A DNA stretch of 21,849 nucleotides from a virus (Duplodnaviria > Heunggongvirae > Uroviricota > Caudoviricetes). The notes under the pieces are model-generated. The model did no database searches, was not told where the DNA came from, and saw only the letters and a list, made by a program, of their open reading frames with translations. Position numbers and translations under genes: made by a program. Location of the stretch: IMG/VR virus record IMGVR_UViG_2693429728_000015, positions 1 through 21,849 of that record. One strand, written 5' to 3'. This document shows positions 208 to 18,571 of the stretch, in pieces (position 1 is the stretch's first letter; every line of letters starts with the position of its first letter).

Positions 208-1926
208 ATGATTTTTAGGGATAGCTTGAGAGTATTACCTTATGGTCGAGTAGATAATGATTTCTTCCAGATAGAAGAAAGACGTTCATGGAATGCAGGG
301 CGATATTATTGGTCTAATAGAAGGATTTTTGGTTATATTGGAATTACTCAATCCAGTAATAAAGAGCTGAAAGATAAGTCGGGGAGAGAGGGATTCATAA
401 GAAACCAGGCTGCAAGAGAACTGAAAACTATTATATCTAATTTGTTAACTGAACTTGCTGATAGATTTTTTGGTTCACGTTCTGATGACCGTAAAGAGCT
501 TTTAGAACAAGTTAAGCGTGAAAAAGAGTTAAGAAAATCTGCTCAACAACAAGCTCGAAAATCAACACAAAAAAGTTTTTCAGAAGCTTTGAAGAATCAG
601 ACACCAGTTCTTGATGCTTCCTTGGAGGCTGTTAAAAGGCTGAAAACTAAGCTTGATAAAACTGATGGTTCGTTAGATTTAAACTATCTTAAAATTATAG
701 ACAGTGATCTTACAAACTTAGATGCGTTGCGCAGTGAAATTAAAACGCCTATCAAACCTCCAAAACTTGGAATGTATGAAGAGAAATATAGAGACTACAG
801 AGATAAATTTAATGAGTTCTCTGCGTATATTCTACAAATGAAGTTAGCAATTAATAAACTTGATTCTGAATTAAATAAACTTGAGCCTTCATTGTCAGCG
901 AAAAATCACCTTGAAAAAAATCAAGGTATTATTAATTCTAAACTAACTAAGTTTAATAACACGATAGAGGAGAAGATACATTCTCTTTTAAAAAAATGGG
1001 CCGATGAAATAAAGGTTGATCGAAGTGATTATTATGCTAAAACTATATCAGTTGTTGATTCAATAGATAATGATTCACAAATTGAAAATGTGTTTAATTT
1101 GCTCGATAGTTTATATGTTGAGTCAGTTGATACCCTAACTTTCAAATATCAATCAATAATAAAAGGTCTCGATGGATTATTTGAAGGTATAAACTTAGAT
1201 TCAGCATTCTCATTATCTGAAGAAGAACGCTCATATTTTGAAGAAAAAGCTAAAAGTTTAAACGCGCTTGCACAGTTAGGTATTAGTGTTGAGATAATAT
1301 CTCATGAACTTGAAGAAATGGATTCTATGGTAACCAGAGGACTAAACTCTCTTCCTACTTCTGTAAAAGAACACCCTGGTTTTTCATTGGCGTTAAATGC
1401 TCACAGATCGCTTACTCAACAAATACGTTTCTTATCACCTTTGAAAATATCAGGTTATCAATCCAGGCAGAGAATAACTGGAAAAAATATCATGGATTAT
1501 GTCCTGAAGTTCTTTGGGGAGCGTTTCGAACGGCAACGAATAACTATTGAATTTAGTGAAGAGTTTAAGCAAATCGCAATAACAGATATACCATCAAGGA
1601 TCTATCCTGTTTTTACTAATATTATCAACAATGCAATGTATTGGGTCAGTCTGTCAAATAATAGGCTCATAAAGATTGGTTTTGTGAATTCTTTGGTTAT
1701 CATAGCAAATTCTGGTCCGGCAATTGATACCGATGATATCCCGCGACTATTTGAACTATTTTATAGCAAAAGAGCAAATGGACATGGGGTAGGTCTGTAT
1801 CTATGTCGAGAAAACCTTGCTGTTGCACATCATAAAATATGGTATTCAGAACCTGATGAAGGCGATAACTATTTAATAAAAGATGGCGCTAATTTTGTGA
1901 TCCAGTTCAATGGAGTGGAGTTCTAA
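208..1926 (+). CDS. Histidine-kinase-like protein: coiled-coil-rich N-terminal region, HisKA-like H-box, C-terminal GHKL/HATPase_c domain
   Basis: 572-aa ORF. Translation shows an H-box-like 'ISHELEEMDS', an N-box 'NIINNAMYW', a G1-like 'ANSGPAIDTDD' and a G2 'GHGVGLYLCRENL'. No in-frame start between the stop at 79-81 and ATG 208. Region is AT-rich (about 30% GC in a sampled stretch). No hydrophobic segment seen, so probably cytoplasmic. The SD (AGGA) sits only 3 nt from the ATG, so the start is uncertain. Confidence 0.7.
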   Translation: MIFRDSLRVLPYGRVDNDFFQIEERRSWNAGRYYWSNRRIFGYIGITQSSNKELKDKSGREGFIRNQAARELKTIISNLLTELADRFFGSRSDDRKELLEQVKREKELRKSAQQQARKSTQKSFSEALKNQTPVLDASLEAVKRLKTKLDKTDGSLDLNYLKIIDSDLTNLDALRSEIKTPIKPPKLGMYEEKYRDYRDKFNEFSAYILQMKLAINKLDSELNKLEPSLSAKNHLEKNQGIINSKLTKFNNTIEEKIHSLLKKWADEIKVDRSDYYAKTISVVDSIDNDSQIENVFNLLDSLYVESVDTLTFKYQSIIKGLDGLFEGINLDSAFSLSEEERSYFEEKAKSLNALAQLGISVEIISHELEEMDSMVTRGLNSLPTSVKEHPGFSLALNAHRSLTQQIRFLSPLKISGYQSRQRITGKNIMDYVLKFFGERFERQRITIEFSEEFKQIAITDIPSRIYPVFTNIINNAMYWVSLSNNRLIKIGFVNSLVIIANSGPAIDTDDIPRLFELFYSKRANGHGVGLYLCRENLAVAHHKIWYSEPDEGDNYLIKDGANFVIQFNGVEF

Positions 1927-1927
1927 T

Positions 1928-3676
1928 ATGACAGTGGCAAATTATAATTCTCTTGTCCAGAAAACTTTCTGCGAAAATGCAATTCGTTCCGTTGTCATGA
2001 TTGATGACGATTTTCTGACGTATTCTGAATCAATCAGGGCGTTGAATAACGAAGTTGATTTAGACTACAACAAAATTGACTCATCTAAACGAGCCGCTAC
2101 TCTTGAGAGCTTTTTTCAATCTAAAAATATGATTTGTGATGTTGACAATGGTTCTGTTAATTTCGATGTGGATCGGATTAGAAAATCAGATCTTATTATT
2201 GTAGATTATCATCTTGATAATAATGCACCTGATAAAACACTTAAACTATTACAAGATTTGAAAGGCTCCGATCATTTAAATATGATTGTAATATATACTA
2301 GAGAGAATTTAGAAACGGTTTGGATGCAGATATCATCGACTCTCAAAGGTGCTCTGGATATCAACAGCTTGATCATTGACTACGATAATGAAGATGTCCA
2401 AAGTTATTGGGAAGACGTTGTATTACCGAACTTAAATGATAATGGTAATAAAGCTCTCACAAGAGATGAAACAATAGCCTATATTAAAGACAGTAAGCCT
2501 TGTAGAAGAATTAAAAGATTAATACATGATGATGCTGTGTTGGAGGATCAAAAGGATAAAAACTTCATTGCAAAAATGATTGCAGAATATGCTGTGTCTA
2601 GAAATGCAATTATTTCTAGCAACACATCTGGCAATGTCATTCGGGGTGATGAAAGCGGAGTAAAATGGATTCAATGTGGTAATATCTTTGTCTCCCTATT
2701 TCATAAGGTTCAAGATGATCATGAAAACGATGGAGATAGGATTTGGCAAACTCTCAATGATTCTCTCATTGAATGGAAACCATCTTATTATCAGTTAATA
2801 AAATCTGAAATTCAGAATGCAATCGAAGCTGAGGCTTTATCTTTTGTAAATCATTTGGCTAACGATCATTACGGTCAAGCTGCGTGGTTAAATGAGATAT
2901 TAAAATCAGACTCGCCTGATATTAGATGTAGAAATATTGACTTTGTATTTGGTAATTTATCAGAAGAGCTTTATCAAAGACTTAAAAATAATAATACGCT
3001 GGATGAATTTATCAAAAGTGTTTTTGATAGCTATTCAAATGAATACGCTAACAGCGGAGTTGCTGCATTGCTCCAATATTGCTCTTCAAAAATGGATCTG
3101 CCATCAAATAATGATACTTATCACGAAATGTATCATGCTTTAAATATGAATTTGTCTTCAAAGAATTTTGAAGATGGTCATATTTCTACTGGCACTATTT
3201 TCTTTGATACAGAGTCGAACAAATGGTATTTATGTGTATCTGCGGCATGTGATTTGGTTCCTACTCAGGGTAACGACCCTCACCATGTAAGATTAAGTCC
3301 GCACAGGCTCATTAAAGTTCTGGAGCTTTTTAACGCCAGTCAGAGTAAAGCATTGCCATTTGCTGAACATTCGAAATATATATATGTAATGCATAAAAAT
3401 CAAAGAAAATATCTCTCTATTTTCGAAGGGGATAAAACGCTTCCTGTTGTTGATTATATGGTGGTGTTGAATCATGGAACAACAGTTGATGGCGAAGAAA
3501 AAAATATTATTTCTGCCGTGTTTTTAAGTAATATGGATGGCAACGTGCAAAATGTTCCTGTCCGACTCAAACTTAAATCTCAACTGAGAACTGGTTATGC
3601 AGAAAGATATCAGGCTATAGCGTCTCAGTATAGCTCAAGGATTGGTGTGGATTATGTATCAATGATGCTACCATAA
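1928..3676 (+). CDS. Receiver (REC)-like N-terminal domain fused to a roughly 430-aa C-terminal domain of unknown function
   Basis: ORF track gives 1910-3676. The ATG at 1928 is preferred because GGAGTGGAG lies 7 nt upstream and it sits 1 nt after the upstream stop (translational coupling). N-terminus has REC-like landmarks: 'VVMIDDDF' (acidic pocket), 'DLIIVDYHL' (putative phospho-acceptor Asp), 'MIVIYT' (Thr) and a following Lys. I do not recognise the C-terminal region. Confidence 0.6.
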   Translation: MTVANYNSLVQKTFCENAIRSVVMIDDDFLTYSESIRALNNEVDLDYNKIDSSKRAATLESFFQSKNMICDVDNGSVNFDVDRIRKSDLIIVDYHLDNNAPDKTLKLLQDLKGSDHLNMIVIYTRENLETVWMQISSTLKGALDINSLIIDYDNEDVQSYWEDVVLPNLNDNGNKALTRDETIAYIKDSKPCRRIKRLIHDDAVLEDQKDKNFIAKMIAEYAVSRNAIISSNTSGNVIRGDESGVKWIQCGNIFVSLFHKVQDDHENDGDRIWQTLNDSLIEWKPSYYQLIKSEIQNAIEAEALSFVNHLANDHYGQAAWLNEILKSDSPDIRCRNIDFVFGNLSEELYQRLKNNNTLDEFIKSVFDSYSNEYANSGVAALLQYCSSKMDLPSNNDTYHEMYHALNMNLSSKNFEDGHISTGTIFFDTESNKWYLCVSAACDLVPTQGNDPHHVRLSPHRLIKVLELFNASQSKALPFAEHSKYIYVMHKNQRKYLSIFEGDKTLPVVDYMVVLNHGTTVDGEEKNIISAVFLSNMDGNVQNVPVRLKLKSQLRTGYAERYQAIASQYSSRIGVDYVSMMLP

Positions 3677-4201: not shown

Positions 4202-5473
4202 TTAGGCTACCAGAGCATTTGATCTTTGAGCTTGAACGTAATCACTCCACCATTGCATCAAACTCTGTCGCTCTATCAGATATTCTGCACGATTGTATGC
4301 TGCGATAATTTCATCTTTTTTCGAGTGGGCAAGCGCTGCCTCAAGAACTTCAGCTCTGAATTTACCAGACTCCTCTGCCGCTGTTCGTGCAATAGAACGC
4401 ATACCGTGAGCTACAAGCTCGCCTCCGAACCCCATTCGGATGATAGCTGCGTTGGCTGTTTGTTCATGCATATGATTAAGAGGCGCTTTTATGCTGGGGA
4501 AAACCCATTCTCTATGCCCACTTATTGATTTCATTAATTCAAGGATGCGCAAAGCTTCTTTACTCAAAGGAACTTTGTGAAGCTTTTTCATTTTCATGAA
4601 ATCAGCAGGAATGTTCCAAATGCTGTTGGTTGTATCAATATCAGACCACCTTGCGCGAACGGCTTCACCCGGACGAACCCATGTCAACAATTGCCATTCA
4701 ATTAGCATACGTGTTTCCAACCGGATTGACGCATTCGTCAAAGATTCCATAAACCTTGGCAATTCGCTTGGGGGAAGGGCAGGCATATTTTGCTTTTTTG
4801 GTTTACTGAATCTTTGACCAAGGTTGTCAGCCGGGTTGAACTCAATAAGTTCTTCAGTAGCTGCCCACCGGAAGATTTCATTCAGACGTGAAATGATACG
4901 GCGTAGAGTTTCCAATACGCCTCGTTGCTCAATAGGATCAAGGTGTTGTTTTAAGAGCTTAGGTCGGATCTCATTGATAGGGACATTACCCAGACCGGGA
5001 AAGACATTTCTCTCTAAGCTGCGCCAGATGTCTGCTGCATGGTCTTGTGAGATACCTGATGTCTTTACCTTCTCATCTAACCATTTCCGCGCTACGGCTT
5101 GGAGAGTGTGCTCAGTAGCACTCTTTAATGCCTTCGCCTTATCGTTGTTATGGATTTGGGGATCAACACCATTTGCCAGAAAGGAGAGATATTCATCACG
5201 TAAGGCTCTGGCTCTTGCAAGGGTAAGGTGAGGATATGTCCCAAGGCTCATTTTGGTTCTTTTCTTGCTCACTGGTACTGCATACCTGAAATACCAATTT
5301 TTCTTGCCTCCTTTCGCCAAAGGAGCGATTCGTAGAATCAGACCATCACCGTCAAACAAGTTGATTTCTTTATCGGCTGGCTTGGTGCTTTTGATTTCAG
5401 TGTCAGTGAGCTTCTTAGCGATTTTTGCCATTTTGGGACCCTCGGTTTTTGGACCCTTCTTAATGGGTCCCAT
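4202..5473 (-). CDS. int: P4-family (IntA/CP4-57-like) tyrosine integrase
   Basis: 423-aa ORF. N-terminus 'MAKIAKKLTDTEIKSTKPADKEINLFDGDGLILRIAPL' is typical of the P4-integrase arm-binding domain; C-terminus has 'LAHSKKDEIIAAYNRAEY' (catalytic-Tyr region). The more likely start is the ATG at 5431 (GAGGG about 9 nt upstream), giving 409 aa. It lies immediately downstream, same strand, of the ssrA 3' fragment. Confidence 0.9.
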   Translation of the reverse strand: MGPIKKGPKTEGPKMAKIAKKLTDTEIKSTKPADKEINLFDGDGLILRIAPLAKGGKKNWYFRYAVPVSKKRTKMSLGTYPHLTLARARALRDEYLSFLANGVDPQIHNNDKAKALKSATEHTLQAVARKWLDEKVKTSGISQDHAADIWRSLERNVFPGLGNVPINEIRPKLLKQHLDPIEQRGVLETLRRIISRLNEIFRWAATEELIEFNPADNLGQRFSKPKKQNMPALPPSELPRFMESLTNASIRLETRMLIEWQLLTWVRPGEAVRARWSDIDTTNSIWNIPADFMKMKKLHKVPLSKEALRILELMKSISGHREWVFPSIKAPLNHMHEQTANAAIIRMGFGGELVAHGMRSIARTAAEESGKFRAEVLEAALAHSKKDEIIAAYNRAEYLIERQSLMQWWSDYVQAQRSNALVA

Positions 5474-5528
5474 TCAGGGTGCCATAACTCGTAGTTCTCA
5501 GCAATTCTCACTGGACGACAATAGACGT

Positions 5529-5560
5529 AAAAAAGCCCGCAGAGCTTGTGCTGTGTGGGC
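5529..5560 (-). terminator. Putative rho-independent terminator between the ssrA fragment and int
   Basis: On the minus strand an imperfect GC-rich hairpin (GCCCACACAG...CTGCGGGC) is followed by TTTTTT (plus-strand A-tract at 5529-5534). Confidence 0.45.
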
Positions 5561-5596
5561 TTAGTAGACTTCATTGAACTTCAAACAACTAAAAAG

Positions 5597-5641
5597 TGGT
5601 GGAGCTGGCGGGAGTTGAACCCGCGTCCGAAATTCCTACAT
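5597..5641 (-). repeat. ssrA: 3'-terminal 45 nt of tmRNA (ssrA): T-arm plus acceptor ending CCA; att-site direct repeat of an ssrA-integrated element
   Basis: Reverse complement reads ATGTAGGAATTTCGGACGCGGGTTCAACTCCCGCCAGCTCCACCA, which I recognise as the 3' end of enterobacterial tmRNA. Sequence at higher coordinates (5642-5800) is AT-rich and unlike the tmRNA body, so this is a partial copy, not the gene. Confidence 0.75.
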
Positions 5642-5767
5642 ACTAATAATATATCTTTAAAATCAAAATATTCTATTATTTATCAATGTATTATGTTTAT
5701 GTGGTGTTAAGGGGTTTATATGGGTTTTAGTTCTCTGCCGCCAAAATGCAGCCAAAAAAATTGAATG

Positions 5768-5795
5768 GTAAAACGCCAGTTCGTTGAACTGGCGA
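5768..5795 (-). terminator. Rho-independent terminator after the ThyX-like gene
   Basis: Perfect 9-bp stem with 3-nt loop (cgccagttc-gtt-gaactggcg, 5775-5795), followed on the minus strand by TTTTACC. It sits 10 nt after the stop of the 5805-6572 CDS. Confidence 0.6.
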
Positions 5796-5804
5796 GATCT
5801 TGTC

Positions 5805-6572
5805 TTATTGTTTTATTATCTTAACGTGCGCCGTTCCTCCATTGACTTTTTCGAAATCTTGGAACAAGGCAGGGGCATCTTGAGTTACAATATCGTAAAG
5901 TTTTTCTGAAACTGTTCTCATTTCATAGTCACCCTGTATTGCTCCTCTCATTTCGAAGAAGTGTCGAATTGCGCGAGCATTTGCTGTGACGATTATTTTT
6001 GTCTCGGTTGCATTAGGCAATATAGAGCGAGAAGCGCTTCTTAGGGCCCGCATTTTTTCTTTTTTGTTCTCATACGATTGGTTTTCACGGATTTTTTTCA
6101 AGGATTGCTTATAAAAATCCAGACTACTTTCAATATGTTGGCACCATGACTTAAACAATTCTGGGTCATTTTTTACTTCTATAGGGGCTACGAATTCAGC
6201 ATCGGATTCATCATGATACTGTTGGGATAACTGGCTATATGAAAAACCAGCTCTATGCCGAACTAGCTGGTGTGTAAATGCACGAGATACCCCAGTAATT
6301 AAAAAGGTCCAGTTCAAATGTTCTAAGACACTTTCATGCCCTTGAATAATTAAATTGTTGATATATTGACTTGTAGTCCGTGGAGACTGCTTATCCTCTC
6401 CAAAAGACATATAACATAGCCTGCCAGCGGCCTCTACCAGAAGCTCAGCTTCGGTCGCCTGCCCTTTGCGAACCCATTGCAATGATGATGTGTTTAAAAA
6501 ATCATCAAAAACATTACTTTCAAATGAAGGGTGTGATATGCATTTTACTGATAAATCAGAGATTTTTATCAT
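5805..6572 (-). CDS. ThyX-like flavin-dependent thymidylate synthase homologue
   Basis: 255-aa ORF with 'GVSRAFTHQLVRHRAGFSYSQLSQQY', matching the ThyX signature (RHR ... SYSQ.SQ) and its surrounding conserved block. GGGAG lies upstream of the ATG. Starts 2 nt after the stop of the upstream Dcd-like gene (operon). AT-rich. Confidence 0.7.
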   Translation of the reverse strand: MIKISDLSVKCISHPSFESNVFDDFLNTSSLQWVRKGQATEAELLVEAAGRLCYMSFGEDKQSPRTTSQYINNLIIQGHESVLEHLNWTFLITGVSRAFTHQLVRHRAGFSYSQLSQQYHDESDAEFVAPIEVKNDPELFKSWCQHIESSLDFYKQSLKKIRENQSYENKKEKMRALRSASRSILPNATETKIIVTANARAIRHFFEMRGAIQGDYEMRTVSEKLYDIVTQDAPALFQDFEKVNGGTAHVKIIKQ

Positions 6573-6574
6573 TT

Positions 6575-7360
6575 TTACTCCCGTATAGCTTTTGGGGTGC
6601 TTACTTTAGCATCAACCTTTGGTTCGTTTGATTTAGCATTTTTTAGTAATTCAACGGTGCTTTTTAGGCTATTTATTTCATTTTGTTGAACTTTTATTGT
6701 TAATTCAAGATCTTTTGTACTACTGACATTACTGGATACTATTTGAAATAAGAAAGGAATTGCTAGGGTTATCAACGTTAGCATTAAGGCTGCTATCGCA
6801 ATTATAAAGCCAGTTTTTTTCGCAATGATTTTATTGATTTCTTTCGGAAGTCGTTTATCAAGTCCTGCAAAATCCTTTCCCATTCTAGAAAGTTGATCAT
6901 CATCCAATTTATTTACGATTTTTCCTTGGTAACCTTTAGTCGGTATTATTGTTTTAAATAATAACATTCGGGCTACTGCAGAATTTTGTGTCAATGAGAA
7001 TGGTTCTTTTGACATATTTACAAGATATATTGAAATTATGCCATTATATCCAGGGTCAATATGCCCTGGATTCGTCATGATAATTCCATTTTTTGATAGT
7101 GTGTTTCTTGGGAATATTACACCAGCTAAATTTTTTGCAAGTTGGAATTTTTCATTTAACTCTAATATTACAGTTTCCCCTGGCATCAGGATATGGTTGT
7201 TACGTGTTTTTTTATTGTCTTGACAGTCTGGTATATGTATTGTTTTTACAGAGAGATCAATGCTTGCAGATTGAACTTTAAATGTTCCATTTAATACCGT
7301 TAATGGATCAAAAATGTTGCCTCGCTGAATTTCATCATTGATTTCTATTTCAGACAGCAT
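6575..7360 (-). CDS. dCTP-deaminase/dUTPase-fold (Dcd-like) domain fused to a C-terminal transmembrane helix and a Lys-rich tail
   Basis: 261-aa ORF. 'PGHIDPGYNGIISIYLVNMSKEPFSLTQNSAVARMLLF' resembles the Dcd active-site block (HRIDPGWSG...). N-terminal region is also Dcd-like. Residues about 190-215 ('GFIIAIAALMLTLITLAIPFLFQIV') form a predicted TM helix. Starts 26 nt after the int stop. AT-rich. Confidence 0.6.
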   Translation of the reverse strand: MLSEIEINDEIQRGNIFDPLTVLNGTFKVQSASIDLSVKTIHIPDCQDNKKTRNNHILMPGETVILELNEKFQLAKNLAGVIFPRNTLSKNGIIMTNPGHIDPGYNGIISIYLVNMSKEPFSLTQNSAVARMLLFKTIIPTKGYQGKIVNKLDDDQLSRMGKDFAGLDKRLPKEINKIIAKKTGFIIAIAALMLTLITLAIPFLFQIVSSNVSSTKDLELTIKVQQNEINSLKSTVELLKNAKSNEPKVDAKVSTPKAIRE

Positions 7361-7386: not shown

Positions 7387-8400
7387 TTATAAATTAGCCA
7401 GAGGGTTTTTTATTACTGCATCTTCAAGATGCTCTGGGGAAAAATGTGCATAAATCATAGTCATTTTTATATCAGAGTGGCCTAAAATATCTCGTAAAAC
7501 CAAAATATTACCACCATTCATCATAAAATGGCTGGCGAATGTATGGCGCAGAACGTGGGTGCATTGGCCCTCTGGTAACTCAATGTCAGCTCGCTTTACT
7601 GCTCGTTCAAAGGCTTTTCTGCAAGGAGTGAATAACTTCCCTCTGTTCTTAGGGAGTTCGTCATACAGATCCTGAGATATCGGCACGGTACGGTTTTTCT
7701 TGCCCTTAGTCTTGGTATAGGTGATCCGGTATTTCGATAACTGATGGCCCTGCAGATTTTCGGCTTCACTCCAGCGCGCGCCGGTGGCCAGGCATATTTT
7801 TGCAATTAAAAGTAGACTGGGGCTTTGAGAATCAGCACAGGCATCCAGCAGACGTTTAATTTCTTCCGGGGTCAGGAACGCCAGTTCACCCTCAGCAATT
7901 TTAAATGTTGGCAGCCCGGCAAGCGGATTGGGGGCTGACCAGTGGCCCAACTTTTTCAGTGTGCCAAAAACAGATGATAGGTTGCGCTGTTCAAGGTTTA
8001 CAGTGCGGGGCTTAACGGGCGACATAAGCGTGCCCTCTTCATTTCGCACTTCACCTTTTAGCCGCGCTTCTCGGTATTTAGTAAAATCACCGGCTGTCAG
8101 CTCTGAGGCGATGGGATCGCCTAGACCATTACAGATAATTCTAAGTTTCGCCATGAGGCGCTTGGGGTCTGCGAGTGTTTGACCATACAGGGAATACCAC
8201 TGCTCAATTAATTCTGATAGGTGTCGCCGATCTTCCTTTTCCCCCAGCCATGGCTTTTTGTTCACTTCTTCCATTGTGAAGCTTTCAAAAGCAATGGCTT
8301 CGCCTTTCGTAGCAAATTGCTTACGCACGCGCTTGCCATTGCGTCCATGGGGATAGCACTCGCACAACCATTTACCGTTTGGCTGTTTTCTGACAGTCAT
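7387..8400 (-). CDS. int: P2/186-family tyrosine integrase
   Basis: 337-aa ORF. N-terminus 'PNGKWLCECYPHGRNGKRVRKQFATKGEAIAFE' is P2-Int-like; C-terminus 'HVLRHTFASHFMMNGGNILVLRDILGHSDIKMTMIYAHF' carries the R-H-R-Y catalytic region. Starts 2 nt after the cI stop. Confidence 0.9.
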   Translation of the reverse strand: MTVRKQPNGKWLCECYPHGRNGKRVRKQFATKGEAIAFESFTMEEVNKKPWLGEKEDRRHLSELIEQWYSLYGQTLADPKRLMAKLRIICNGLGDPIASELTAGDFTKYREARLKGEVRNEEGTLMSPVKPRTVNLEQRNLSSVFGTLKKLGHWSAPNPLAGLPTFKIAEGELAFLTPEEIKRLLDACADSQSPSLLLIAKICLATGARWSEAENLQGHQLSKYRITYTKTKGKKNRTVPISQDLYDELPKNRGKLFTPCRKAFERAVKRADIELPEGQCTHVLRHTFASHFMMNGGNILVLRDILGHSDIKMTMIYAHFSPEHLEDAVIKNPLANL

Positions 8401-8402
8401 GT

Positions 8403-9035
8403 TTAGATACTCTTTATTACTTTGACTGCACGCCCAATAACTTCCACATCATCAGTAGAGCACTCGAAAGACGCTTCATCTTGATTTACTACAATCTTAT
8501 TGCCGGGAATCCGCATGATTTTTGCAACAATAATCATTCCATCAATATTGATAAGCCAGAATCCATTGCTGACCTGTTTAATTGATTTATCGATGAGATA
8601 ACAATTAGTAGGGGTTTCTAAGAACATCAATTCTTCATAATCTGCAGGTAATATGCTGTGGTCTAGGAAAATCTCTTCATCAATACTGAGTTGTCCATTC
8701 TCCAGGGTTCCTTTAGGAATAGCTGGAGTTATGAGTTTGGATAACGGTTTAATTGCTTGTTTGTTCTCATTATGAGAACTTTTCTCAGGCTCAGCTCCTC
8801 CTTTCATGCTTCCCTGTCCTGTAGCTAACCAAAGCAACGAAACACCGGTTTCTAGTGCGCACTGAATTATCCAGTCAGCAGGAAAGCTGTCACGTAACAC
8901 TCTGTTTGCCATAGTGCTTTTTGAGACATTCAGGTGCTCGCTTAATGCCTGCTTAGTTGTGAATCCATAAGCCTCAAGCAGCCTTCCAATAGCTGCCTTA
9001 CCTCCCGTATCGGAACCCATTCTGATGTTTAACAT
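8403..9035 (-). CDS. cI: CI-type immunity repressor (phage 186 CI-like)
   Basis: 210-aa ORF. N-terminal HTH region '...LEAYGF...CALETGVSLLWLATGQG' resembles 186 CI. Divergent from apl/cII and directly upstream of int, as in 186-like phages. Confidence 0.8.
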   Translation of the reverse strand: MLNIRMGSDTGGKAAIGRLLEAYGFTTKQALSEHLNVSKSTMANRVLRDSFPADWIIQCALETGVSLLWLATGQGSMKGGAEPEKSSHNENKQAIKPLSKLITPAIPKGTLENGQLSIDEEIFLDHSILPADYEELMFLETPTNCYLIDKSIKQVSNGFWLINIDGMIIVAKIMRIPGNKIVVNQDEASFECSTDDVEVIGRAVKVIKSI

Positions 9036-11829: not shown

Positions 11830-12683
11830 GTACCATCCTGAAATGGGCGGGTAATAAAACTGCCATTATGTCCGAACTGAAAAAACATCTTCCTGCTGGC
11901 CCGCGACTGGTTGAACCTTTCGCGGGTTCCTGTGCTGTGATGATGGAGACGGATTACCCCAGCTATCTGGTTGCGGATATTAATCCTGATTTAATCAACC
12001 TCTATAAAAAGGTTGCTGCTGATTGCGAGGCGTTTATATCTCGTGCCAGAGCTTTATTTGAGGAAGCAAACAGGGAGTTGGCTTATTACAACATAAGGCA
12101 GGAGTTTAATTACTCCACTGAAATTACTGATTTCATGAAAGCGGTATATTTCCTGTATCTCAATCGTCATGGTTACCGTGGGTTATGTCGTTATAACAAG
12201 AGCGGGCATTTCAACATTCCATACGGTAATTATAAAAATCCGTATTTCCCTGAAAAAGAAATTCGCGCATTTGCAGAGAAAGCCCAGCGAGCAACGTTTA
12301 TCTGCGCCAGCTTTGATGAAACGCTGGCGATGCTGCAGGTGGGGGATGTGGTGTATTGCGATCCGCCTTATGACGGTACGTTTTCCGGCTATCACACTGA
12401 TGGTTTCACTGAAGATGACCAGTATCACCTGGCATCCGTTCTTGAACATCGGTCATCAGAAGGACATCCGGTCATTGTTTCTAACAGTGACACATCCCTG
12501 ATCCGTTCGCTGTATCGAAATTTTACTCACCACTACATCAAGGCAAAACGCAGCATCGGTGTAGCAGCTGGTGAGAGTAAATCTGCAACAGAAATCATCG
12601 CTGTTTCCGGGCCGCGCTGCTGGGTGGGATTTGATCCTTCGCGTGGCGTGGATAGTTCTGCCGTGTACGGAGTGCGTGCATGA
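11826..12683 (+). CDS. dam: Dam-family N6-adenine DNA methyltransferase
   Basis: ORF track starts at 11754. ATG 11826 has GGAGGTG upstream. N-terminal '[20 protein letters not shown]...EPFAGSCAV' is the AdoMet-binding region; 'CDPPYDG' is the catalytic DPPY motif. Confidence 0.85.
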
Positions 12684-15094
12684 GCCATGCTGATATGAAC
12701 AACTGCAGCGGCTTTAACGAGGTCGCCGCAGCATTCTCATGGAACAGCCCGAAAAAGGCCATTAACCCTTATCTGGACCCGGCGGAAGTTGCGCCGGTTT
12801 CTGCGCTTTCAAACCTGATCACTCTGTACGCTACTGATAACGAGCAGGAACAACTGCGCCGCGAGGCACTGAGTGATCAGGTTTGGGAGCGTTATTTCTT
12901 TAATGAATCCCGTGATCCTGTCCAGCGCGAAATGGAGCAGGATAAGCTCATTAGCCGGGCAAAGTTGGCGCATGAGCAGCAGCGTTTTAACCCGGACATG
13001 GTCATTCTGGCAGACGTTAACGCCCAGCCTTCCCATATCAGCAGGCCGCTGATGCAACGTATTGAATACTTCAGCAGCCTTGGCAGGCCAAAGGCTTATT
13101 CCCGCTATTTGCGTGAGACGATTAAGCCATGTCTGGAACGGCTGGAGCATGTACGCGACAGTCAGCTATCCACTTCTTTTCGCTTTATGGCAAGCCATGA
13201 AGGGCTGGACGGCCTGCTGATTCTGCCTGAAATGAGTCAGGATCAGGTGAAACGCCTGTCCACCCTTGTTGCTGCGCATATGAGCATGTGCCTTGATGCA
13301 GCTTGTGGCGATTTGTATGCCACCGATGACGTTAAGCCAGAAGAAATCCGCAAGACATGGGAAAAGGTGGCAGCAGAAACCCTGCGACTGGATGTCATAC
13401 CGCCTGCGTTTGAGCAACTCCGCCGGAAAAGAAACCGCCGCAAACCTGTGCCCTATGAACTCATTCCGGGTTCGCTGGCGCGTATGCTGTGCGCCGACTG
13501 GTGGTATCGGAAATTATGGAAGATGCGTTGCGAATGGCGGGAAGAGCAGTTGCGTGCTGTCAGCCTGGTCAGCAAAAAAGCATCTCCCTATGTCAGCTAT
13601 GAAGCCGTGATGCATAAACGTGAGCAGCGCCGTAAGTCGCTGGAGTTTTTCCGTTCTCATGAACTGGTGAACGAAGACGGCGACACGCTGAACATGGAGG
13701 ATGTGGTAAACGCCAGCAGCAGCAACCCGGCGCATCGCCGCAATGAGATGATGGCCTGTGTTAAAGGCCTGGAACTTATCGCGGAAATGCGTGGTGACTG
13801 CGCCGTTTTCTACACCATCACCTGTCCGTCACGTTTCCATTCCACGCTAAATAACGGCAGGCCAAACCCGACCTGGACCAACGCGACAGTAAGACAAAGC
13901 AGCGATTATCTGGTCGGCATGTTTGCTGCATTTCGTAAGGCTATGCACAAAGCCGGGTTGCGCTGGTATGGCGTGCGGGTGGCTGAGCCACATCATGACG
14001 GTACAGTTCACTGGCACCTGTTGTGTTTTATGCGCAAAAAAGACCGCCGCGCCATCACTGCATTACTGCGTAAGTTTGCCATCCGTGAAGACCGCGAGGA
14101 GCTGGGCAATAACACGGGGCCGCGCTTTAAGTCTGAGTTGATTAACCCGCGCAAAGGAACGCCGACAAGCTACATCGCGAAATATATCAGTAAGAACATT
14201 GACGGGCGTGGTCTGGCTGGCGAGATCAGCAAGGAAACGGGTAAATCCCTGCGTGATAACGCTGAATACGTGAATGCCTGGGCGTCTCTGCATCGTGTTC
14301 AGCAATTCCGCTTCTTTGGTATTCCGGGGCGTCAGGCTTATCGTGAACTGCGATTGCTGGCTGGTCAGGCGGCAAGGCAGCAGGGTGACAAAAAAGCAGG
14401 TGCGCCGGTACTGGATAACCCACGCCTTGATGCCATCCTGGCTGCTGCTGATGCTGGCTGTTTTGCGACCTACATCATGAAGCAGGGCGGCGTGCTGGTT
14501 CCCCGCAAATATCACCTTATCAGAACAGCTTATGAAATTAACGAAGAGCCGACCGCCTATGGCGATCACGGTATTCGTATTTATGGCATCTGGTCACCCA
14601 TTGCAGAGGGCAAGATCTGCACTCATGCAGTGAAGTGGAAAATGGTTCGTAAGGCCGTTGACGTTCAGGAGGCGGCAGCCGAACAGGGCGCTTGCGCCCC
14701 TTGGACTCGTGGCAATAACTGTCCCCTTGCTGAAAATTTGAACCAACAAGGGAAAGACAAATCAGCTGATGGGGATACCAGAACGGACATTACCCACATG
14801 GATGACAAGGAGTTGCACGATTACCTGCACAGTATGAACAAAAAAGAGCGCCGGGAACTGGCTGCAAGGTTACGCCTGGTGAAACCGAAACGGCGTAGAG
14901 ACTACAAACAGCGAATTACAGACCATCAACGACAGCAGCTCGTCTATGAACTGAAGTCCAGAGGATTTGATGGCAGCGAGAAAGAGGTCGATTTACTCCT
15001 TCGCGGCGGCAGTATTCCGTCAGGAGCAGGCCTGCGTGTCTTCTATCGGAACCAGCGTTTGCAGGAAGATGATAAGTGGCGGAACCTGTATTAA
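12680..15094 (+). CDS. A: P2/186 gene A-type replication initiation endonuclease
   Basis: 804-aa ORF, GC-rich, in the position after the early genes. Size and conserved blocks (for example '[11 protein letters not shown]') are consistent with the rolling-circle initiator A. Start overlaps the dam stop. Confidence 0.8.
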
Positions 15095-15163
15095 TTACGC
15101 GGGTTAACAATTCGTGCTCTTAATAATACCAGGCATATCAGGCTGATGAACGTAAAAAAACGT

Positions 15164-15206
15164 TTTACATCAGTAAGATTATCATATACTGTAAATATAA
15201 ACAGTG
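15164..15206 (+). promoter_or_regulatory. SOS-regulated promoter: TTTACA-17-TACTGT with a LexA box overlapping the -10
   Basis: LexA box TACTGTAAATATAAACAGTG at 15187-15206 (CTGT-N8-ACAG). -35 TTTACA at 15164-15169. It lies upstream of the small ORF and the DinI-like gene. Confidence 0.6.
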
Positions 15207-15247
15207 GTTATCTATACAGTATTGTTTGCGGTGTCATAGGAGGAAAG

Positions 15248-15436
15248 ATGCAGGACTATTTTTTGGAGTCTTTGAAGCTCCAGCGCATTGATTTTTTTCT
15301 TAAGCTTGTAGCGGCTAGTGAGTGTAGTGATGAAGAGAAGGGGCTGGCCCTGCAGTGGGTTTCTGAATTGACTGATGAACTCATGGCAAAAATCAGAAGC
15401 CACGAATACAACCGCTCAATGGATGTCATCAGCTGA
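15248..15436 (+). CDS. Small acidic protein, possibly the N-terminal antirepressor part of a Tum-like module
   Basis: ORF track starts at 15146. ATG 15248 has the strong SD AGGAGGAAAG upstream and gives 62 aa. Downstream of the LexA box and upstream of the DinI-like gene. Confidence 0.45.
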   Translation: MQDYFLESLKLQRIDFFLKLVAASECSDEEKGLALQWVSELTDELMAKIRSHEYNRSMDVIS

Positions 15437-15446
15437 GGTGACTTTT

Positions 15447-15680
15447 ATGCGCATTGAAATAATGATCGATAAAGAGCAGAAGATTAGCCAGTCTACCCTG
15501 GACGCTCTGGAGTCCGAGCTTTACCGCAACCTGCAACCCATCTATCCCAAGACCGCTATCCGCATCCGTAAAGGGTCGGCAAACGGCGTTGAGCTGAGTG
15601 GCTTAAAGCTTGATGAAGACAAAAAGCGGGTGATGGAAATTATGCAACAGGTTTGGGAAGACGACAGCTGGCTGCACTAA
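15447..15680 (+). CDS. DinI-family protein
   Basis: ATG 15447 with GAGGTG 6 nt upstream. 77-aa 'MRIEIMIDKEQ...ALESELYRNLQ...VMEIMQQVWEDDSWLH' resembles E. coli DinI. The phage 186 Tum antirepressor has a DinI-like C-terminal part. Confidence 0.7.
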   Translation: MRIEIMIDKEQKISQSTLDALESELYRNLQPIYPKTAIRIRKGSANGVELSGLKLDEDKKRVMEIMQQVWEDDSWLH

Positions 15681-15798
15681 GGAACGTTCCTGATGTAAGA
15701 ACTTGAATCTGACGTCAGCAAGGTTGAACAACGAGAGTAGCGAGGCGTTAGCCATGGGTAAAAAAGACAGTAATCACCAGATTATTTATCGGGGCTAG

Positions 15799-16014
15799 GT
15801 GCTGGAACGTTTAACCCTTGGCGACTGGGTCTTCTTTCAACGCCCAAAGGAGTGTGGCGGAGGTTTTTGGTTGGGCCGCATCTATGAAGACTGCTTCTGG
15901 CTTGAGCTGGAATTCCCCGTTTCGCTATATGACGGCCTGGGGTTTTTGATGGAAGTCACTAGGGTAGAGCAGAGAAGTGATGAGGTTGACGCGAATTATC
16001 CCCTGTTTGATTAA
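15799..16014 (+). CDS. Hypothetical protein (GTG start, weak)
   Basis: 71-aa ORF with GTG start and no clear SD. May be a remnant. Confidence 0.25.
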   Translation: MLERLTLGDWVFFQRPKECGGGFWLGRIYEDCFWLELEFPVSLYDGLGFLMEVTRVEQRSDEVDANYPLFD

Positions 16015-16033
16015 AAATGTATTAGCTTATAAT
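16006..16033 (+). promoter_or_regulatory. Near-consensus sigma70 promoter (TTGATT-16-TATAAT) upstream of the membrane-protein gene
   Basis: -35 TTGATT at 16006-16011 and -10 TATAAT at 16028-16033, about 30 nt upstream of ATG 16063. Confidence 0.5.
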
Positions 16034-16062
16034 GGAATACTATTTTTGCAGGTGGGGGCGCA

Positions 16063-16674
16063 ATGGATTTAGTCTTTAAAGTTCTGGCTTCGTTGGGTGG
16101 GGTGTCTTTTGTTGCATCTGGCATATTTGTTTGGATCGGGAAAGTTTATTTAGAAAGATATAAGTCGCGGCTAAACAAAGATATTGCTGAATTTCAATCA
16201 CAACTGAGTGCAACTAATGAAAGAATAAAGGCTAAGTTAGACAATTCTGTTTATGTAACGAAAGCGTATTTTGATAAGGAGTTATCAGCATATAGTCTCA
16301 TTTGGAATTCGATGTTTGAAACCAGAGAAAGCGTGCTTAAGCTGAGGCCTGCGCTGGATCATGTTGACCCCAACGAACCATTTGAAGAGAGAAAATTTAG
16401 AAGGTTGAAAGTTTTTTCTGATGCATTTAACACTTTTGTTACAAGTGTTGAATCTAACAAACCGTTCATCTCACCAGAGGTTTATATAATCTTGGACCGT
16501 TTCCGGAAGGAATGCCTTTCAGAGTCAATATCGTTTAAGCATAGCGATCCAGAATTTGACGGGCAAAATTATTGGAAAGAGGCGGAGTTGAACCATACAA
16601 CCATCATCAAGCTTTTTGATGAGACGTGTGATGCAATTCGAGACAGGATGCACACATTAACTGTGGTTACGTAG
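16063..16674 (+). CDS. Membrane-anchored protein (single N-terminal TM helix), unknown function
   Basis: 203-aa ORF. Residues about 5-26 ('FKVLASLGGVSFVASGIFVWIG') are hydrophobic. GGTGGGGG upstream of the ATG. AT-rich. Confidence 0.65.
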   Translation: MDLVFKVLASLGGVSFVASGIFVWIGKVYLERYKSRLNKDIAEFQSQLSATNERIKAKLDNSVYVTKAYFDKELSAYSLIWNSMFETRESVLKLRPALDHVDPNEPFEERKFRRLKVFSDAFNTFVTSVESNKPFISPEVYIILDRFRKECLSESISFKHSDPEFDGQNYWKEAELNHTTIIKLFDETCDAIRDRMHTLTVVT

Positions 16675-16766
16675 GTTTCCAAAAAGTCTCGATGCCCGCT
16701 TTGGAGATTGTGCATGTCTATGCCGCATGAATCCGCATGATCGTTTGAGGATCGTTTTAGCTGAGG

Positions 16767-16792
16767 CCCGCCAGGAGTGGCGGGATTTTGCT
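16767..16792 (+). terminator. Hairpin plus T-rich tract (possible terminator or attenuator) between the membrane-protein and KAP genes
   Basis: CCCGCCA-ggag-TGGCGGG (16767-16784) followed by ATTTTGCTT, inside a GC-rich spacer that contrasts with the AT-rich flanking genes. Confidence 0.35.
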
Positions 16793-16918
16793 TATGTCAT
16801 GCAGGCGCATGAAAACCGCTACATAAAGCGGGCAGGCGTGGCGGGGATACGAGCGCGCGCTCATTACTTTTATAATTCTAGGGTTATAATACGGGGCTGT
16901 CTTTCTAGGAGAAAACAC

Positions 16919-18571
16919 ATGTCCTTAGAGTTTATCAAAGAACAGTTGTCAGATTTTATCTCATCTACAGAACCAGAAGTAATGGCTATACAGGGTGAAT
17001 GGGGAATTGGTAAAACCTATACTTGGAATACGTTCCTAAAAGATAATAAAGATAAGGTTGCATTTAATAGATATAGTTATGTCTCTCTTTTTGGTATAAA
17101 TTCACTAGATTCTTTAAAGTATTCTATTTTTGAGAATGCAATTACAAAGGAATATATTGGAAATAAACCTGATTTGGAGACAGCAACAACAAACGCAAGT
17201 GGACTTTTTGAATCATTTTCTCGAAAAGCAGCAGGTTTGTTAAAAGAAGTTCCTGTTGTAAAAAACTTCTCTACGACACTTGAAGCAATGTCATTTCTGA
17301 CCGTTTCTAAAATGATTGTAGTAATAGATGACTTAGAAAGGCGTGGCAAAAATTTAGATGTTAAAGATGTTTTAGGGCTAGTATCTCTATTAAAAGAGCA
17401 GAAGGATTGTAAGGTGGTTCTATTGCTTAACAATGGCACAGCTAGTATGGAGGATTATTCTACTTATAAAGAAAAGGTCATTGATAGAGATATCACTTAC
17501 AATCCAACACCAGAAGAATGCGCAGATATAGCCTATAAAGGTGATTCTCATGTTTATAACTTGTTAAGTAAATATTCCATTTCTTTAGGTATCAAGAATA
17601 TTCGAATCTTAAAAAAGATAGAACGTTTTTTCGTGTCCTTAATACCAAATATTATAGGTGATGTTGAGACAATTTCAAATGAAGTTGCGCATTCATTAAC
17701 TCTGTATTGTTGGAGCCATTACGGATTTTCTCCAGAGGGAGATGTGCCATCACTAGAATATATTAGGGGAGTGAGGAATATATATACTTATAATGACAAG
17801 GAAGAAGGCCATGAGAAAATCTGGCTTAATACCTTGCTTAAATATGGATATAGAAAAACGAATGATCTTGATGAGGTTCTTATTGATATGGTTAGATATG
17901 GCTATCTTGATAAGAGCAGTTTCCAAAGACAAATAAGCCTAAGGAATGAGGAGATTACGCGTGATAATAAACGAGGTTCCTTATCTGAGGCATGGCAGTT
18001 CTTTCATAATTCATTTGATGACAATCAAAATCAGGTTGTTGACAAGCTATATCAAGCGGTGGTTGATGGGATGAAGTATGTGACTCCAAGTGATTTAGAT
18101 AATGTTGTCGGACTATATAGGGATTTCGGAGAGAATGCTAAGGCGAGTGAATTGATTGAACAGTTTATTAATTATGGTAACGATGCTCTAAAGGAATATG
18201 TTCAATCTATTTATGTGAATGTTCATCCCGTAAGAGATACTGAGTTGTTGTCAAAAATTCAAGCCTATTCTAAGATTATAAATATTGATGGTTCAATATA
18301 TGATGTTCTTAAGAAATTATCAGGTCAGAATGGTTGGTCTGATAGACATGAGGAAATATTGGATGCTGCTTCAGTAGATGACTACTATCAATTATTTAAA
18401 AATGTCATTCTTGATGGTGGTGATTCAATAATAGCTACGGCGCTTAAATTCGGAAATTTTAGTAATGGTTCTGATAGAATGAATCGTATAGGGAAAAAGG
18501 CAAGGGATGCCTTGATAAGAATTGGAGATGAATCGGCGATTAATAAAATGCGTGTAAGGCGATTTTTGTGA
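16919..18571 (+). CDS. KAP-family P-loop NTPase
   Basis: ORF track starts at 16727. ATG 16919 is preferred because AGGAGAAAA lies upstream and two TATAAT boxes lie at 16871-16890. Walker A 'QGEWGIGKTYTW' (GxWGxGK[ST], KAP-type); Walker B 'MIVVIDDLERRGK'. No TM helix seen within it. AT-rich. Confidence 0.75.
   Translation: MSLEFIKEQLSDFISSTEPEVMAIQGEWGIGKTYTWNTFLKDNKDKVAFNRYSYVSLFGINSLDSLKYSIFENAITKEYIGNKPDLETATTNASGLFESFSRKAAGLLKEVPVVKNFSTTLEAMSFLTVSKMIVVIDDLERRGKNLDVKDVLGLVSLLKEQKDCKVVLLLNNGTASMEDYSTYKEKVIDRDITYNPTPEECADIAYKGDSHVYNLLSKYSISLGIKNIRILKKIERFFVSLIPNIIGDVETISNEVAHSLTLYCWSHYGFSPEGDVPSLEYIRGVRNIYTYNDKEEGHEKIWLNTLLKYGYRKTNDLDEVLIDMVRYGYLDKSSFQRQISLRNEEITRDNKRGSLSEAWQFFHNSFDDNQNQVVDKLYQAVVDGMKYVTPSDLDNVVGLYRDFGENAKASELIEQFINYGNDALKEYVQSIYVNVHPVRDTELLSKIQAYSKIINIDGSIYDVLKKLSGQNGWSDRHEEILDAASVDDYYQLFKNVILDGGDSIIATALKFGNFSNGSDRMNRIGKKARDALIRIGDESAINKMRVRRFL

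Follow-up and report, generated by a model that had tools for sequence, protein, structure and literature searches.

A probable SOS induction operon with a split tum-type antirepressor gene in a Fels-2-like prophage of Escherichia coli

The stretch of DNA analysed here (21,849 nucleotides, hereafter the window) is part of a Fels-2-like prophage (Felsduovirus, P2/186-type) of E. coli, and the 621 bases around the locus under study recur without any difference (100% identity) in several E. coli chromosomes, with an identity of 98% to phage Cartapus and of 91% to Fels-2. Related copies of the locus were found in 1126 of the 5426 complete E. coli genomes. It lies directly downstream of the replication gene A (12680-15094; Pfam Phage_GPA, 1.5e-126), with an SOS promoter that begins 70 bases past the end of that gene, and this position after gene A is that of tum in phage 186. 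From left to right on the + strand, the locus comprises the -35 hexamer TTTACA of a p95-like SOS promoter (15164..15169, read from the sequence), a -10 hexamer TACTGT (15187..15192, assigned by analogy with the 186 annotation), which sits inside a first LexA box (TACTGTAAATATAAACAGTG, 15187..15206, unstranded), a second LexA box overlapping the first (CAGTGGTTATCTATACAGTA, 15202..15221, unstranded), and a Shine-Dalgarno sequence AGGAGG (15238..15243, likewise read from the sequence) ahead of a 62-aa ORF (15248..15436). This ORF is herein called tumA, and it was assigned as an antirepressor gene homologous to the N-terminal module of Tum on the basis of homology and of its identity to ECHS_RS04495 of E. 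coli HS. A second Shine-Dalgarno sequence, GAGGTG (15435..15440, +), overlaps the tumA stop codon and precedes tumB, which encodes a 77-aa DinI-like protein (15447..15680, +; Pfam DinI, 2e-24) and starts 10 bases past the tumA TGA in a different frame. A preliminary description made from the sequence alone had listed the elements of the span 15164-15680, including a DinI-like frame separate from the preceding 62-aa ORF and a position equivalent to that of the SOS-controlled tum, and all were present as described. The presumed target of TumA is encoded elsewhere in the window by cI (8403..9035, - strand), a 186-type immunity repressor gene recognized by its Pfam domains. An Rfam scan of 14900-16100 gave no credible match.

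The cargo that separates the dinI-like gene from the portal gene (15799-18571) is variable, and in the window it is unlike that of Fels-2, DuoHS (the related prophage of E. coli HS) and 186. Its ORFs encode proteins of 71 aa (phrog_2100), 203 aa (phrog_26391) and 614 aa, the last being a KAP-family P-loop NTPase (16727-18571) that matches Pfam KAP_NTPase (5e-7) and, among the PADLOC candidates for defence families, PDC-S49 (4e-27). This is probably an anti-phage cargo in a hotspot of the P2 tin/old type, possibly but not necessarily transcribed from the SOS promoter as well. A homologue of orf97, the gene that follows tum in 186, is absent from the window, and STM2726 of Fels-2 is likewise not an orf97 homologue. 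Immediately beyond the prophage integrase gene (7387-8400) come genes for a dCTP-deaminase/dUTPase-like protein (6575-7360) and for the thymidylate synthase ThyX (5805-6572), and then a second integrase, of the P4 type (4202-5473). PADLOC had no matches in this region (4202-7360), which may represent cargo at the prophage end or another island inserted in tandem. At the left edge of the window (208-3676), two large ORFs overlap. The one at 208-1926 encodes a histidine-kinase-like protein (HEF_HK/HATPase_c), the one at 1910-3676 a protein containing a Response_reg_2 domain, and PADLOC matched neither of them.

The motif CTGT-N8-ACAG occurs once in the window (15189-15204), 59 bases upstream of the start of the tumA ORF. 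With 0.19 occurrences expected by chance and at least one in 16 of 100 shuffles, this single match is weak on its own; the LexA box is convincing because of its position and its conservation. Within a set of 47 tumA homologues, drawn from phage records and 40 species-representative Enterobacterales genomes (the genera include Escherichia, Salmonella, Citrobacter, Enterobacter, Klebsiella, Pantoea, Erwinia, Tatumella, Serratia, Yersinia and Cronobacter), a CTG-N10-CAG motif was present no more than 160 bases upstream in 45 loci, one exception being a contig end. The initial proposal of a LexA box overlapping the -10 just after gene A was thereby confirmed. Although a generic promoter scan found no site at the locus, the promoter could be assigned by homology with p95 of 186: its layout of TTTACA, a 17-base spacer and TACTGT resembles that of the annotated p95 (TTCACA, 18 bases, TACTGT), where the LexA site begins at the -10. 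As a -10 hexamer TACTGT is poor (3 of 6 positions), and an alternative, TATACT, is found at 15185-15190 with a 15-base spacer. Across the promoters of 26 distinct relatives, the -35 TTTACA is nearly invariant and the spacer to the -10 varies freely, while no variation is seen in CTGT, in the central CAGT or in the distal CAG. The tumA ribosome site is also kept among relatives, as ATAGGAGGGAA(A/G)ATG.

The second LexA box (15202-15221) was absent from the preliminary description. It is offset from the first by 15 bases, begins with GTG rather than CTG, and has five mismatches to the consensus TACTGTATATATATACAGTA, against three in the first box. The window has a single occurrence of the combined pattern, CTG-N10-CAGTG-N10-CAG (15189-15219, against 0.01 expected), and the pattern was found at the same place in 22 tumA loci as well as in two pesticin promoters. 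Over approximately 40 bases, the operator is 85-90% identical to the pesticin (pst) operators of Yersinia pestis pPCP1 and of a small E. coli plasmid. Judged by its sequence, it is a double overlapping LexA box of the colicin/pesticin type: promoters of that type also have two LexA boxes with a 15-base offset and a shared central CAGTG, but there the double box controls a bacteriocin, whereas here it controls a prophage antirepressor. By comparison, 186 and PsP3 each have a single, near-consensus LexA box. Double SOS boxes of colicin genes have been reported to be bound by two LexA dimers, which leads to very tight repression, lower basal expression, delayed induction and expression in a small subpopulation only, and LexA would be expected to bind directly to both boxes of the tumA operator as well.

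The small ORF behaves as a gene under selection. Over 41 intact 62-codon copies from across Enterobacterales species, the median dN/dS was 0.08 in the tumA frame, compared with 1.2 and 1.8 in the other two frames, and the last 17 codons taken alone gave 0.19; purifying selection thus acts on the TumA protein along its whole length, as far as the stop codon. Some gene finders extend the ORF upstream to 96 aa (ATG at 15146), a form that we rejected since its start lies upstream of the -35 and the 62-aa form has a strong Shine-Dalgarno sequence. The AlphaFold model of TumA is a helical hairpin (helices 2-23 and 28-61, pLDDT 88.7), with no relative found in the PDB. Neither Pfam nor NCBIfam holds a model for the protein, which PGAP labels “hypothetical protein” and PHROGs “unknown function”. 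Many members of the TumA family outside the Fels-2 clade (relatives P0266, P0276, P0280, P0297, P0300, P0303, P0307 and P0310, and loci L003 and L005) share a conserved C-terminal tail, K-x-P-Q-x-G-G-x-S-G-G-G-x-x-(L/F)-Q, for which a degradation tag and an extra interaction motif are possibilities; the TumA of the window does not have this tail.

A lack of similarity between the 62-aa ORF and the N-terminal region of Tum had been named as a refutation of the proposal; pairwise BLASTP alone would wrongly suggest such a lack, and profile methods overturn it. BLASTP found no similarity between the ORF and 186 Tum, and hhalign on shallow alignments (Neff 1.5) gave a P of only 0.002, such that diverse relatives were needed. 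A profile search with the close relatives of the ORF against 1.8 billion representative proteins yielded 86 matches, and a hidden Markov model was built from the diverse, intact matches among the relatives of the ORF itself. This HMMER profile matched residues 7-43 of 186 Tum with 33 bits (E 2e-12 as a single comparison, Z=1) and, when run against all ORFs of 48 loci, again recovered 186 Tum (E 3.4e-8). Two further proteins matched by the same model were a Yersinia phage protein annotated as “tum protein” (4e-14) and a 63-aa 186-like Tum that stands alone (6e-14). In hhalign, residues 5-45 of TumA aligned with residues 5-45 of 186 Tum (probability 95.1%, E 3.1e-8). The match of the TumA profile to the TumA of PsP3 was marginal (E 0.003). 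The PHROG families are in independent agreement: the TumA of the window belongs to phrog_698 and also matches phrog_8554 and phrog_1993, all three of which are matched by 186 Tum, and the PsP3 TumA is phrog_1993. Identity between TumA and the Tum N-terminus is approximately 20%, with a common motif of L(Q/E)RI(D/E)xxx(K/R)L...C...(D/E)(K/R)xxALxW(I/V)xEL. By these profile comparisons, the product of the 62-aa ORF and the N-terminal part of 186 Tum are remote homologues.

The product of tumB matches Pfam DinI (PF06183) over the whole profile (1-63 of 63) with 86.1 bits against a cut-off of 24.2, as well as the PDB structure of DinI (1GHH, E 2e-9), and it is 43% identical to residues 71-145 of 186 Tum. 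Its score against the NCBIfam model for the chromosomal DinI equivalog (NF007893) was 53.7 bits with a cut-off of 111, and by sequence it is a phage paralogue of the TumB type and not the host DinI. Members of the DinI family modulate RecA filaments. The protein has an acidic C-terminal segment (VWEDDSW), and most likely it would bind RecA filaments and tune the SOS signal in an accessory role. A dinI-like gene comes right after tumA in ~24 of the 47 loci; the others, ESSI-2, ev040 and Yersinia among them, have a truncated copy or none, and a fusion of the two is found in 186 only. Because about half of the homologous loci do without it, the dinI-like gene is dispensable for the module. In every relative with the gene, the tumA stop, the Shine-Dalgarno sequence and the ATG are packed into 8-13 bases. 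The DinI-like protein of the window is also a mosaic, which agrees fully with the Fels-2/DuoHS type over residues 1-28 and with the TumB of PsP3 over residues 31-77 (overall identity 92% to PsP3 TumB and 86% to DuoHS), which suggests recombination within the gene between phages with very different TumA proteins. A hairpin at 15425-15442 (GTCATC-AGCTGA-GGTGAC followed by TTTTAT), which spans the tumA stop and the dinI-like Shine-Dalgarno sequence and is also found in Fels-2 and DuoHS, was the only terminator-like match; it showed no covariation and is absent in more distant relatives, and we set it aside as probably incidental.

The split arrangement of tum is already described, its deletion has already been tested on an identical protein, and to that extent the biology is settled. 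The Phollow study (PMC12055606, Nat Microbiol 2025) reported that an in-frame deletion of “tum” (ECHS_RS04495) in the E. coli HS prophage DuoHS abolished induction by mitomycin C, that lexA(Ind-) likewise blocks this induction, and that a recA SOS reporter was still responsive in the delta-tum strain. The deletion fuses the start and stop codons, with junction primers reading ...ATAGGAGGAAAG ATG TGA GGTGACTTTTATGCGCATTG. These primers map to 15228-15250 (one mismatch) and 15434-15456 (no mismatch) in the window and fall exactly on the start and stop of the 62-aa ORF. The DuoHS deletion left the dinI-like gene intact. ECHS_RS04495 is itself 62 aa long and 100% identical to the TumA of the window. 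DuoHS also has the same promoter, double operator, 10-base junction and gene order around the locus, and its DinI-like protein (ECHS_RS04500) is 86% identical to that of the window. It differs in its CI (189 aa versus 210 aa, 40-44% identity) and in the cargo downstream of the dinI-like gene.

Other relatives of the locus are split in the same manner. The PsP3 record annotates tumA (“similar to 5' end 186 tum; UV induction of prophage”) and tumB, and, as stated in passages of Lemire 2011 (PMC3121763) that cite Bunny, Liu and Roth 2002, tum is split by a stop codon in Fels-2 and PSP3, with the antirepressor activity carried by the upstream PSP3 gene. Both PsP3 (tumA/tumB) and Fels-2 (STM2728/STM2726.1) match the window in having the split form after gene A with an upstream LexA box. 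The TumA of Fels-2 is 97% identical to that of the window, whereas PsP3 TumA represents another branch of the family (phrog_1993) and its locus has a gap of 3 bases and only one LexA box. Phage 186 corresponds to the window in the position of the locus, in a LexA promoter with its -10 in the box, and in the possession of an N-terminal antirepressor and a C-terminal DinI-like module. It departs from the window in that both modules are fused in one 146-aa protein and in that orf97 follows. Since an internal GTG start in 186 also gives the DinI-like part as a separate product, the fused and split forms deliver similar products. A further likeness is to the Gifsy operons dinI-gfoA and dinI-gftA, for which the relevant passages of Lemire 2011 (PMC3121763) describe LexA-repressed pairs of a DinI homologue and a small antirepressor that acts on a non-cleavable repressor; unlike the window, these operons belong to lambdoid phages, have dinI first, and use unrelated antirepressor and repressor families.

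We consider it very likely that the locus is the SOS induction operon, in split form, of a Fels-2/186-type P2-like prophage. According to the proposed mechanism, LexA would occupy the double operator in an undamaged cell, covering the -10 of a sigma-70 promoter together with its start region. Upon DNA damage, activated RecA would trigger the self-cleavage of LexA and the promoter would fire. TumA, as a predicted helical hairpin, would then bind the 186-type CI and end its hold on the lytic promoter, while the DinI-like protein would be translated from its own ribosome site, 10 bases past the tumA stop. The CI of the window matches Pfam Phage_CI_repr (1.5e-29) and Phage_CI_C (3.3e-29), that is, a 186-type helix-turn-helix and C-terminal domain, and Pfam reported no S24 peptidase domain in it; the repressor should therefore not respond directly to RecA, and an antirepressor would be needed. 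This chain has been demonstrated genetically for the identical DuoHS protein and biochemically for 186 Tum only: passages of Lemire 2011 (PMC3121763) cite Shearwin 1998 for 186 Tum binding CI and blocking its binding to the operator. By the same analogies, the window CI would be the target of TumA, and TumA would be needed for SOS induction of the window prophage.

The preliminary description had offered three readings of the two ORFs, namely a split antirepressor, a frameshift, and a stand-alone DinI-like modulator, and of these the first is the one that the homology to Tum residues 5-45 and 71-145 upholds. The second would make the locus a broken tum, in which a frameshift or nonsense mutation split a fused ancestor into a decaying 5' fragment and a working DinI-like gene, as could be imagined from two ORFs in different frames just 10 bases apart, from the fused form of 186 and from a DinI frame that is open upstream to 15371. 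A decaying fragment, however, is hard to reconcile with the low dN/dS of tumA, which extends to its last 17 codons, with its 41 intact copies in different species and with the separate Shine-Dalgarno sequence of each ORF. The overlap of the DinI frame with tumA is not conserved, about half of the loci have kept tumA but not the dinI-like gene, contrary to what a decaying tumA would predict, and the identical protein is functional in E. coli HS, where DuoHS requires it for induction; we regard a broken or frameshifted gene as excluded by the selection and deletion data. The third reading fares no better. It assigns the SOS function to the DinI-like protein, as a RecA modulator, and regards the 62-codon ORF as a leader or upstream ORF, in keeping with the Pfam and NCBIfam support that exists for the DinI-like ORF only and with the “hypothetical” label of the small ORF in PGAP. 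The conservation of tumA at the amino-acid level, its profile homology to the Tum N-terminus, its occurrence alone with a LexA box in ESSI-2, ev040, Yersinia and some 20 genomes, and the deletion phenotype in DuoHS all speak against a mere leader, to which we assign hardly any probability.

Two further explanations concern how the antirepressor is made and what it acts on. Programmed +1 frameshifting late in tumA might give rise to a fused TumA-DinI protein that would be the counterpart of full-length 186 Tum and the real antirepressor; in the window, Fels-2 and DuoHS, the DinI frame lies at +1 to that of tumA and is free of stop codons over the 63 bases that precede the tumA stop. Yet the corresponding stop-to-stop frame contains only the 77-aa protein in PsP3 and in loci L010 and L015 and spans 79-81 codons in other loci, many loci without a dinI-like gene retain tumA and the LexA box, and a slippery motif was not found. 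The DuoHS deletion spared the dinI-like gene and induction was still lost, showing that the tumA codons are needed, and a frameshifted fusion seems to us highly implausible. It is also conceivable that TumA acts through a target other than CI (e.g. CII, Apl, LexA or RecA), an idea favoured by the finding of identical TumA proteins alongside very different CI proteins. Against it stand the binding of 186 Tum to CI (Shearwin 1998, as cited in the passages of Lemire 2011 mentioned above), the normal SOS reporter in the delta-tum strain, by which LexA and RecA are not the target, and the conserved core that the N-terminal DNA-binding domain of CI keeps across loci. A target other than CI is, on balance, very unlikely.

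The pairing of TumA with CI nevertheless shows a mismatch in conservation. Despite identical TumA proteins, the CI proteins of the window and DuoHS share only 63-64% identity in the N-terminal domain and ~30% in the C-terminal domain, their overall identity being as given above, and the TumA-CI pairing is therefore assumed. The same holds more widely, in that many pairs of loci with TumA at least 95% identical have CI N-terminal domains that are 53-86% identical and C-terminal domains that are 23-65% identical (loci L008-L047, with the CI of L007 at 13701-14270). Divergence of TumA was weakly related to that of the CI N-terminal domain (rho 0.23), compared with a rho of -0.01 for the C-terminal domain. 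In one locus, L029 of Pantoea stewartii, TumA is of the Fels-2 type and the N-terminal domain of CI is 186-like. From these sequence comparisons we tentatively propose, as a possibility that we think somewhat doubtful, that Fels-2-type TumA may be a broad-specificity antirepressor that recognizes the conserved core of heteroimmune 186-type CI N-terminal domains, that it could induce co-resident P2-like prophages of different immunity, and that the colicin-style double operator sets an unusually high damage threshold.

Beyond the known split tum, the double operator, the dispensable dinI-like gene and the TumA-CI conservation mismatch are modest additions. The locus also exposes an annotation gap, as the antirepressor that decides the induction of a very common prophage is still without a functional label, and the profile that links phrog_698, phrog_8554 and phrog_1993 to 186 Tum could seed a family model. 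The colicin-type double operator offers a testable reason why such prophages might fire late or in a subpopulation only and, if the proposal of broad specificity is true, the mismatch between TumA and CI would permit cross-induction among heteroimmune P2-like prophages.
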